From the NCBI RefSeq assembly GCF_003334815.1, contig NZ_QOWO01000132.1: a stretch of DNA of 377 nucleotides. One strand, written 5' to 3'. Shown one piece after another: positions 112 to 299 of this stretch (the stretch's first letter is position 1; every line of letters starts with the position of its first letter). Below the pieces are notes generated by a model. The model was not told the DNA's origin, made no database searches, and worked only from the letters and a program-made list of their open reading frames with translations. The stretch is from Escherichia coli. GTDB taxonomy: Bacteria; Pseudomonadota; Gammaproteobacteria; Enterobacterales; Enterobacteriaceae. The position numbers and the translations under genes were made by a program.

Positions 112-128
112 CCAATCTTTAAGATTGG
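112..128 (-). other. Hairpin (7-bp stem, 3-nt loop) overlapping the CCA end of the partial tRNA-Lys copy
   Basis: Plus 112-118 ccaatct pairs with plus 122-128 agattgg; loop is 119-121 tta. In the minus-strand transcript CCAAUCU-UAA-AGAUUGG, the first CCA is the CCA of the tRNA 3' fragment. Confidence 0.45.
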
Positions 129-143
129 TGGGTCGTGCAGGAT
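125..143 (-). repeat. Partial copy of the tRNA-Lys 3' end (18 nt of the gene including CCA, plus 1 flanking nt) embedded in the spacer
   Basis: Plus 125-143 ttggtgggtcgtgcaggat is identical to plus 1-19. Positions 126-143 are the reverse complement of ATCCTGCACGACCCACCA, the last 18 nt of tRNA-Lys. Identity ends at 144 (g versus t in the real gene). It matches the Lys 3' end, not the Val 3' end (tggtgggtgatgacggg). Confidence 0.85.
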
Positions 144-157
144 GACTCGCTTCGCTC

Positions 158-184
158 GCCCTACGGGCCGTTGCTGGCGCAACG
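158..184 (-). other. Two adjacent short GC-rich hairpins in the middle of the spacer
   Basis: Plus 169-174 cgttgc pairs with 179-184 gcaacg (6 bp, loop 175-178 tggc). Plus 158-161 gccc pairs with 165-168 gggc (4 bp, loop 162-164 tac). Both are perfect inverted repeats read directly from the sequence. Confidence 0.4.
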
Positions 185-197
185 TTATCCTTCACGC

Positions 198-220
198 TTA
201 ACATCTGAGTTTGATGTTAA
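198..220 (-). other. Hairpin (8-bp stem, 7-nt loop) starting 3 nt downstream of the lysY-position tRNA 3' CCA
   Basis: Plus 198-205 ttaacatc is the exact reverse complement of plus 213-220 gatgttaa; loop is 206-212 tgagttt. In the minus-strand transcript this is UUAACAUC-AAACUCA-GAUGUUAA. The stem is AU-rich (6 AU, 2 GC), so only moderately stable. No U-tract follows it. Confidence 0.5.
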
Positions 221-223
221 AAC

Positions 224-299
224 TGGTGGGTCGTGCAGGATTCGAACCTGCGACCAATTGATTAAAAGTCAACTGCTCTACCAACTGAGCTAACGACCC
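224..299 (-). tRNA. lysY: tRNA-Lys, anticodon UUU, complete 76-nt gene with encoded 3' CCA
   Basis: Plus 224-299 is identical base for base to plus 2-77, so the same cloverleaf and anticodon apply (anticodon is plus 264-266 aaa). It lies 3 nt downstream, in the transcription direction, of the tRNA-Val gene. The lysY label is from the recalled valZ-lysY 3-nt spacing and is tentative. Confidence 0.95.

Follow-up and report, generated by a model that had tools for sequence, protein, structure and literature searches.

The window, by which we mean the whole 377-nt stretch analysed here, is the reverse complement of the valZ-lysY-[146-nt spacer]-lysZ segment of the E. coli lysT tRNA operon, a cluster of seven genes flanked by cpoB and nadA. 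It is 100% identical to E. coli K-12 and is present in 5,426 of 5,426 complete E. coli genomes. The genes and features described below lie on its minus strand. The tRNA-Val (UAC) gene valZ (303-377; Rfam tRNA, 57.8 bits) lacks its first base, which is cut off by the window edge, and the tRNA-Lys (UUU) gene lysY (224-299; Rfam tRNA, 79.2 bits) carries an encoded CCA at 226-224; both were called by ARAGORN and agree with the K-12 annotation. The next tRNA-Lys (UUU) gene, lysZ (2-77; ARAGORN), is identical to lysY (repeat D1, 100% identity). We also note that valZ and lysY are separated by 3 nt only (CUC, 300-302); tRNA spacers of such a short length are reported not to be RNase E sites, and RNase P is obligatory to separate both tRNAs (PMC4176162).

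Directly downstream of the lysY CCA, a GUU linker (221-223, read from the sequence) leads to hairpin H (198-220), in which arms at 213-220 and 198-205 enclose a loop at 206-212; its assignment comes from folding, covariation and RNAalifold. It is followed by an RtT-like core (126-196), delimited by an RF00391 match, the consensus fold and pair probabilities, and the last 18 nt of the core (AUCCUGCACGACCCACCA, 126-143; direct repeats D2 and D3) duplicate the 3' end of tRNA-Lys, CCA included, as a pseudo-3' end. This pseudo-CCA is sequestered in a second hairpin (112-128; repeat I6) of the form CCAAUCUU-A-AAGAUUGG, which pairs it with a downstream UUGG at pair probabilities of 0.81-1.00. The second hairpin is found in relatives with changed sequences (CCAAU/AUUGG, CCACU/AGUGG and CCCAC/GUGGG), and these variants look like covariation by eye. 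The remainder of the 146-nt spacer, which reaches to the RNase P site, is the lysZ leader (78-111, from the sequence), in which ...CCGAGUAAAAAUCUUUCAGG... is conserved in relatives.

On the minus strand, hairpin H is made up of the arms UUAACAUC (220-213) and GAUGUUAA (205-198) and the loop AAACUCA (212-206). ARAGORN and the repeat search (repeat I7) bear out the original prediction, which had placed a perfect 8-bp inverted repeat, here with a 7-nt loop, 3 nt past the encoded CCA of tRNA-Lys. A U-G pair between 221 and 197, with a pair probability of 0.43, can lengthen the stem to 9 bp. The hairpin also holds in the thermodynamic folding that had been suggested as a check: the isolated sequence folds at -6.0 kcal/mol with z = -4.3, 1 of 200 shuffles being as good, and in the full 377-nt transcript the 8 pairs form with probabilities of 0.83-1.00. 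When sequences are dinucleotide-shuffled, a perfect 8-bp inverted repeat with a 3-10 nt loop turns up in 3.2% of cases for the window and in 0.8% for the spacer alone, and the repeat, taken in one sequence alone, is only moderately improbable. The stem contains 2 G-C pairs.

An intrinsic terminator was rejected, as the original prediction had also argued: the stem is weak and is followed by GCGUGAAGG with no U-tract, and a terminator scan of the minus strand of the window returned none. A promoter scan of the spacer likewise found none.

The nature of the spacer is disclosed by RF00391, the Rfam model of RtT RNA, matches of which follow each of the 5 tRNA-Lys genes in the lysT operon and are 166-169 nt long. 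In the window, the model aligns to 292..126 with 54.4 bits, above its gathering score of 45; this alignment includes tRNA-Lys, which has to accommodate the model's 5' half by way of non-canonical pairs. The spacer by itself scores 38.0 bits (E = 2e-6), over model positions 59-130 only, which is below the gathering score, and the passing of the threshold is therefore owed to help from the tRNA in the alignment. No other Rfam family matched the spacer with an E below 7. The 3' part of the model (AACGuuGC...GCaaCGGCCCGnAGGGCGAG...CGAGUnAUCC...CCACCA) is a good fit to the spacer. Model positions 1-48, that is, the 5' leader and a T-arm-like AAGGUUCGA hairpin, are absent from the spacer and replaced by hairpin H and CGUGAAGGAU; the model has no counterpart for the 44-nt insert in which hairpin H is situated.

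The RtT core comprises a GA-rich segment, the closing helix P1 (187-196 with 134-143) and two hairpins, CGUUGC/GCAACG (179-184 with 169-174) and GCCC/GGGC (165-168 with 158-161). P1 and both hairpins are recovered by RNAalifold, so that the conserved core hairpins and the closing helix are all present, and P1 uses the 18-nt copy of the tRNA-Lys 3' end as one strand. The spacer lies downstream of a tRNA and its element ends in a copy of the 3' end of that tRNA with CCA, 143-126 being identical to lysY. Since the core and the context are those of an RtT element and the 5' half of the model is missing, the spacer is a truncated lysine-type RtT element, of which hairpin H is the first module. The description of the hairpin as a generic trailer structure is thereby revised: the hairpin exists, and what had been overlooked is that the spacer belongs to the RtT family (RF00391) and that the hairpin is its 5' module. 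Membership in the RtT family is already known, as Rfam-based annotation labels such copies. The new elements are that the lysine-type units are a truncated RtT variant and that their opening hairpin, which is missing from the model, is supported by covariation.

A dispersed repeat of the BIME/boxC kind, considered in view of a remark in PMC2965389, is out at the sensitivity of blastn, which places the RtT-lys core at a median of 5 positions per E. coli genome, equal to the copy number in the K-12 lysT operon. In that operon, each of the five RtT copies closes with 18 nt identical to the 3' end of tRNA-Lys, CCA included (1144-1161, 1431-1448, 1735-1752, 1958-1975 and 2223-2240 in the numbering of locus L001). 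The two neighbouring tRNA-Lys genes have 5' acceptor strands complementary to this 18-nt copy, which could therefore compete with native acceptor-stem formation.

The conservation of hairpin H was assessed by a scan of 100,044 species genomes for the tRNA-Lys 3' 17-mer, followed by 65-95 bases and the 17-mer again, which gave at least 120 loci. Removal of plain tRNA-Lys tandems left 69 distinct RtT-like units among the matches listed, and all 69 of these belong to Enterobacterales. Hairpin-type units are confined, among the matches listed, to Enterobacteriaceae, where their module is represented by 22 distinct sequences from at least 10 genera (Escherichia, Pseudescherichia, Enterobacter, Pluralibacter, Kluyvera, Silvania, Citrobacter, Raoultella, Klebsiella and Superficieibacter). 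In the alignment of these sequences (n = 22), 98.5% of the cells of the 9-bp helix are paired. Double-sided changes are observed at 4 of the 9 pairs in 10 cells (U-A to C-G twice, C-G to U-A, and A-U to G-C), which amount to ~4-5 independent compensatory events rather than 10, as the 22 sequences are kin by descent and paralogy. The observed pairing or covariation score was reached by none of 500 shuffles, and in a control in which the partner was slid by 1-3 columns the pairing fell to 32-45%.

RNAalifold on full-length units independently predicts the same helix and places it in direct contact with P1, and the loop varies freely in sequence and length across the 22 copies. The covariation in 22 homologues and the independently predicted helix confirm that hairpin H is real; the refutation test that had been named for it, a lack of stem covariation in relatives, was run, and the stem passes. 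Across four divergent E. coli strains the hairpin is invariant, so that polymorphism within the species is uninformative on covariation. Among the cells that are not Watson-Crick pairs, there are 17 G-U, three non-pairs (U-C, A-A and A-G) and zero A-C on the tRNA-sense strand. The count of 17 G-U against 0 A-C implies that the structure is selected in the RNA of the tRNA-sense strand, and a DNA-level palindrome or a structure of the antisense strand is out on this account. Hairpin H is thus under selection as an RNA stem-loop of the sense transcript; it belongs to an RtT-like element and holds a fixed place between the CCA and P1. We put the probability that it is a conserved RNA stem-loop belonging to the RtT-like element at roughly 0.9.

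A single unit is worth a separate remark. In Enterobacter sp. EA-1 (L052), the unit that starts with ATTTAACGTCCTGTGATGACGTTAAAC has an RtT core that is largely deleted or scrambled, and its hairpin has stayed whole, with a compensatory A-U to G-C change. From this one case, the hairpin may be retained independently of the RtT core.

The position of the hairpin is as constant as its pairing. The 9-bp stem starts 1-2 nt past the CCA in all copies (2-3 nt for the 8-bp stem), and the distance from hairpin H to the closing helix P1 is 0 nt in every copy. In the 22 homologues the linker has A or G at +1, U at +2 in 22 of 22 and U at +3 in 21 of 22. The form of hairpin H is the same whether tRNA-Lys, tRNA-Val or the operon terminator comes next, and this independence of the downstream gene ties its role to the junction of tRNA-Lys and RtT.

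Within the K-12 operon, the lysW spacer has the same stem with 3 of 7 loop bases changed (UUAACAUC-GAAGACA-GAUGUUAA). The lysT and lysZ spacers have different modules of 26-29 nt that contain GGUGG, and lysQ is followed by a terminator. Non-hairpin 5' modules are thus found after 3 of the 5 tRNA-Lys genes of the operon (lysT, lysZ and lysQ), which encode identical tRNAs, and it follows that hairpin H is no general requirement for 3' maturation of tRNA-Lys. Whatever hairpin H does is dispensable or substituted in the units that lack it. Folding of the modules gives a mean z of -5.0 for the hairpin type, with 22 of 22 below -2, against -1.1 for the ATCG type and 0.0 for the rest; the simpler view of a hairpin after every tRNA-Lys CCA is out, as the hairpin-type module alone is significantly structured.

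We also note a complementary distribution of segments that could pair with CCA. Units with a hairpin-type 5' module have a CCA-complementary segment after the pseudo-CCA (112-119 in the window and 1449-1475 in L001), and units with other 5' modules have GGUGG inside the module (L001 1062-1090 and 1877-1903) and none downstream. This distribution may reflect shared descent of whole spacers.

The processing of the operon transcript bears directly on what the hairpin could do. Agrawal, Mohanty and Kushner (2014; PMC4176162) reported that the lysT operon is made as one ~1100-nt transcript, which agrees with the predicted read-through into the next tRNA-Lys, and that RNase P separates the tRNAs of the operon in the 3'-to-5' direction. 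The lys pre-tRNAs carry trailers of 133-150 nt, for which shortening by RNase II and PNPase and finishing by RNase T were proposed, and a single mature tRNA-Lys species was seen (PMC4176162). The mature fraction of tRNA-Lys was 0.95 in the control, 0.89 in rne-1 and 0.17 in rnpA49, and few intermediates were present in rne-1 (PMC4176162). RNase E cuts in the long spacers were detected in rnpA49 and, according to the authors, are absent when RNase P is active (PMC4176162). The suggestion of an RNase E-type cleavage in the trailer is not sustained by these data as far as the main step of separation goes: RNase P performs that step, and the mature fraction in rne-1 is 0.89 vs 0.95. The scarcity of intermediates in rne-1, taken with the exonucleolytic model of trailer removal, further implies that an endonucleolytic release step is not required by the data.

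In the RNase P mutant, the evidence for cleavage by RNase E near the CCA is indirect. Intermediates of rnpA49 that end after lysW or lysY do not hybridise to probes for the adjacent spacers, and the 3' ends that depend on RNase E therefore lie close to the tRNA (PMC4176162). In many E. coli tRNA trailers RNase E cuts 1-3 nt past the CCA in AU-rich sequence (PMC5291269), and PMC5222698 describes a preference for uridine 2 nt downstream of the cut and for a single-stranded segment. The conserved CCA-R-UUU fits this preference, with its U residues partly in the lower stem (pair probability 0.43-0.95).

The role that we favour, tentatively and at somewhat less than even odds, is that hairpin H organises the junction of tRNA and spacer and gives a putative excised spacer RNA a paired 5' end. 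Local folding of hairpin H would leave a very short, A/U-rich single-stranded linker (CCA-R-U-U) at the junction. The trailer could be severed in this linker, either by an RNase E/G-type cut 1-3 nt past the CCA or by final exonucleolytic trimming after RNase P has acted at lysZ. Hairpin H could stack on P1, and with such stacking the putative excised RtT-like RNA would begin base-paired at its 5' end, which should slow 5'-end-dependent decay. 5'-Terminal stem-loops such as the ompA 5' hairpin are said, in work attributed to Emory, Bouvet and Belasco in 1992, to stabilise RNAs against 5'-end-dependent attack by RNase E. By analogy, cutting the spacer 1-3 nt past the CCA would put hairpin H 0-2 nt from the new 5' end, in a geometry like that of ompA. 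The fixed position of the hairpin, the CCA-R-UUU linker, the rnpA49 blots and the precedent of rtT RNA, which arises by processing of the tyrT transcript (Bosl and Kersten 1991, cited in PMC4986893 and PMC2965389), are consistent with this junction role.

The comparison with tyrT, for which K-12 was used since E. coli SK1144 shows no annotated RtT repeats after tyrV, shows what the two kinds of RtT copy have in common. Both the tyrT copies and the lysine-type units lie directly downstream of a tRNA in a tRNA operon and end in the 3' end of their own tRNA, tRNA-Tyr or tRNA-Lys, including the CCA. They share the RtT core, AACGuuGC-N4-GCaaCGGCCCGnAGGGCGAG...CGAGUnAUCC, and a closing helix with a pseudo-3' strand. 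Unlike the RtT model, the lysine type is devoid of positions 1-48, and the sequences after the CCA in the tyrT copies are unrelated to those of the lysine type. The K-12 tyrT trailer (L124 264-300) has a 6-bp stem, ACCACA/UGUGGU, with a GCGA loop, which starts 6 nt past the CCA, and the tyrV trailer (L124 558-580) has a stem of at most 4 bp. In SK1144 (L122), a convergent fatty-acid desaturase gene lies 17 nt past two tRNA-Tyr genes and RtT repeats are unannotated; judged by annotation, E. coli strains seem to differ in the number of RtT copies at tyrT.

Stem-loops a few nucleotides past a tRNA CCA and joined to it by an AU-rich linker are also seen in the Rho-independent terminators of lysQ, lysV and proK/L/M, which are removed by RNase P or RNase E with a cut in the linker. 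In contrast to those terminators, hairpin H lacks a U-tract, folds at -6 kcal/mol with only 2 G-C pairs, and is transcribed through into lysZ. A further likeness is to tRNA spacer RNAs. The 3'ETS-leuZ and metZWV spacers reportedly act as sRNA sponges, a finding attributed to Lalaouna et al. in 2015; these RNAs and the lysY-lysZ spacer are alike to the extent that they are structured pieces of tRNA primary transcripts. Putatively excised in tRNA maturation, the lysY-lysZ spacer may, by this analogy, have a life of its own.

Among the alternatives to the junction role, an exonuclease roadblock is the one that the original prediction had put forward. RNase II and PNPase, entering after the RNase P cut at lysZ, would pause at hairpin H, and the pause would protect the 3' end of the tRNA or define a discrete intermediate for RNase T. 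The long lys pre-tRNA trailers, with their proposed removal by RNase II and PNPase and then RNase T, provide such enzymes with a substrate in which hairpin H is the last structure before the CCA. However, according to PMC5291269, which cites Spickler and Mackie, PNPase and RNase II degrade terminator stems of only 4 G-C pairs, and resistance to PNPase sets in at ~-16 kcal/mol with at least 5 G-C pairs. Hairpin H, with 2 G-C pairs and -6.0 kcal/mol, falls well short of this, and a durable block of 3' exonucleases is unlikely. A stem 1-3 nt off the CCA would moreover hinder rather than help the final trimming, which is single-strand-specific, and tRNA-Lys genes without hairpin H mature equally well, as judged by the single mature species. 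We regard the roadblock as unlikely.

About as unlikely is a folding insulator, in which hairpin H would form fast and co-transcriptionally and keep the folding of the tRNA and of the RtT core apart; the pseudo-3' strand of the core (ACGACCCACCA) could otherwise compete for the 5' acceptor strand of tRNA-Lys. The pseudo-3' fragment is indeed complementary to GGGUCGU of both flanking tRNA-Lys (repeats I3-I5 and I8-I10), hairpin H is local and very probable in its context, and the spacing of CCA, H and P1 is fixed. Against this stand the type C and G modules, which share the pseudo-3' fragment and have no comparable hairpin (mean z of -1.1 and 0.0, respectively).

Hairpin H could also be a functional domain of a putative trans-acting RtT-like RNA, binding a protein or a partner RNA in a manner unrelated to processing. 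A link of RtT RNAs to the stringent response and to stress has been described, and the stem is under selection. In K. pneumoniae, RtT copies that are clustered in the genome are differentially expressed; at 166-170 nt, they match in length the RF00391 hits after tRNA-Lys here. Neither the sequence nor the length of the loop is conserved, which speaks against loop-specific recognition, and the sequence of the stem drifts by compensatory change; we consider this domain improbable.

Improbable to a like degree is a decoy reading, in which the lysine-type RtT units would be functional RNAs that present a decoy tRNA 3' end (ACCCACCA), the accessibility of which is set by interchangeable modules. 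In some units a GGUGG "anti-CCA" in the 5' module would have this function, and in hairpin-type units hairpin H would lie beside P1 with the anti-CCA downstream of the pseudo-CCA. Were this reading true, enzymes that read tRNA 3' ends, such as RNase P, RNase T/PH, the CCA-adding enzyme or RelA on the ribosome, could be titrated or ordered by the decoys, which would explain the strict 3'-to-5' order of RNase P as well as the old link between rtT and the stringent response.

A coding start in the hairpin was considered and rejected: the mechanical 54-aa ORF that begins with the ATG at 204-202 enters lysZ, and its ATG is not kept among the hairpin variants. A neutral palindrome or relic, be it a decayed terminator, a DNA-level palindrome or the start of this small ORF, is very unlikely: although non-hairpin modules of the same length (26-29 nt) fill the same slot in paralogous units and the ATG lies in the 3' arm, the compensatory changes and the G-U excess over A-C on the sense strand are unexpected for a relic or a DNA or antisense feature, the ATG is lost in GACGUU, GAUAUU and GGUAUU variants, and there is no U-tract.

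To our knowledge, Rfam and genome annotation have listed RtT RNAs for decades with no mechanism known. Seen against this, hairpin H is a modest refinement of a known and poorly understood element rather than a new kind of signal. It offers a concrete handle that can be mutated, by disruption and restoration, in the best-studied bacterial tRNA operon. It also opens the questions of how structured trailers of 130-150 nt come off tRNA-Lys, and of whether the spacers are by-products of processing or stable RNAs with their own function. The minimum gain is a correction to the Rfam RtT model, the 5' half of which now aligns onto the tRNA.

The comparison of loci yielded several minor observations on the history of these units. 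In the K-12 operon, a 52-nt direct repeat (L001 2067-2118 and 2223-2274), consisting of the 3' 18 nt of tRNA-Lys and the lysQ terminator, surrounds the last and longer RtT copy, so that the operon ends in two identical terminators with an RtT between them. The arrangement resembles the outcome of a tandem duplication, or of an insertion that duplicated a long target. In a Superficieibacter unit (L115) and a Citrobacter MAG (L083), a second and partly decayed hairpin-type module is present just past the pseudo-CCA, and E. coli AUCUUAAAGAUUGG resembles a deletion derivative of that second module. These second copies suggest that the spacers arose from tandem RtT units. Finally, the lysY copy of E. 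coli STEC388 has a T-to-C difference (position 6 of locus L125), which gives TCGAAC instead of TCGAAT in the T-loop region.
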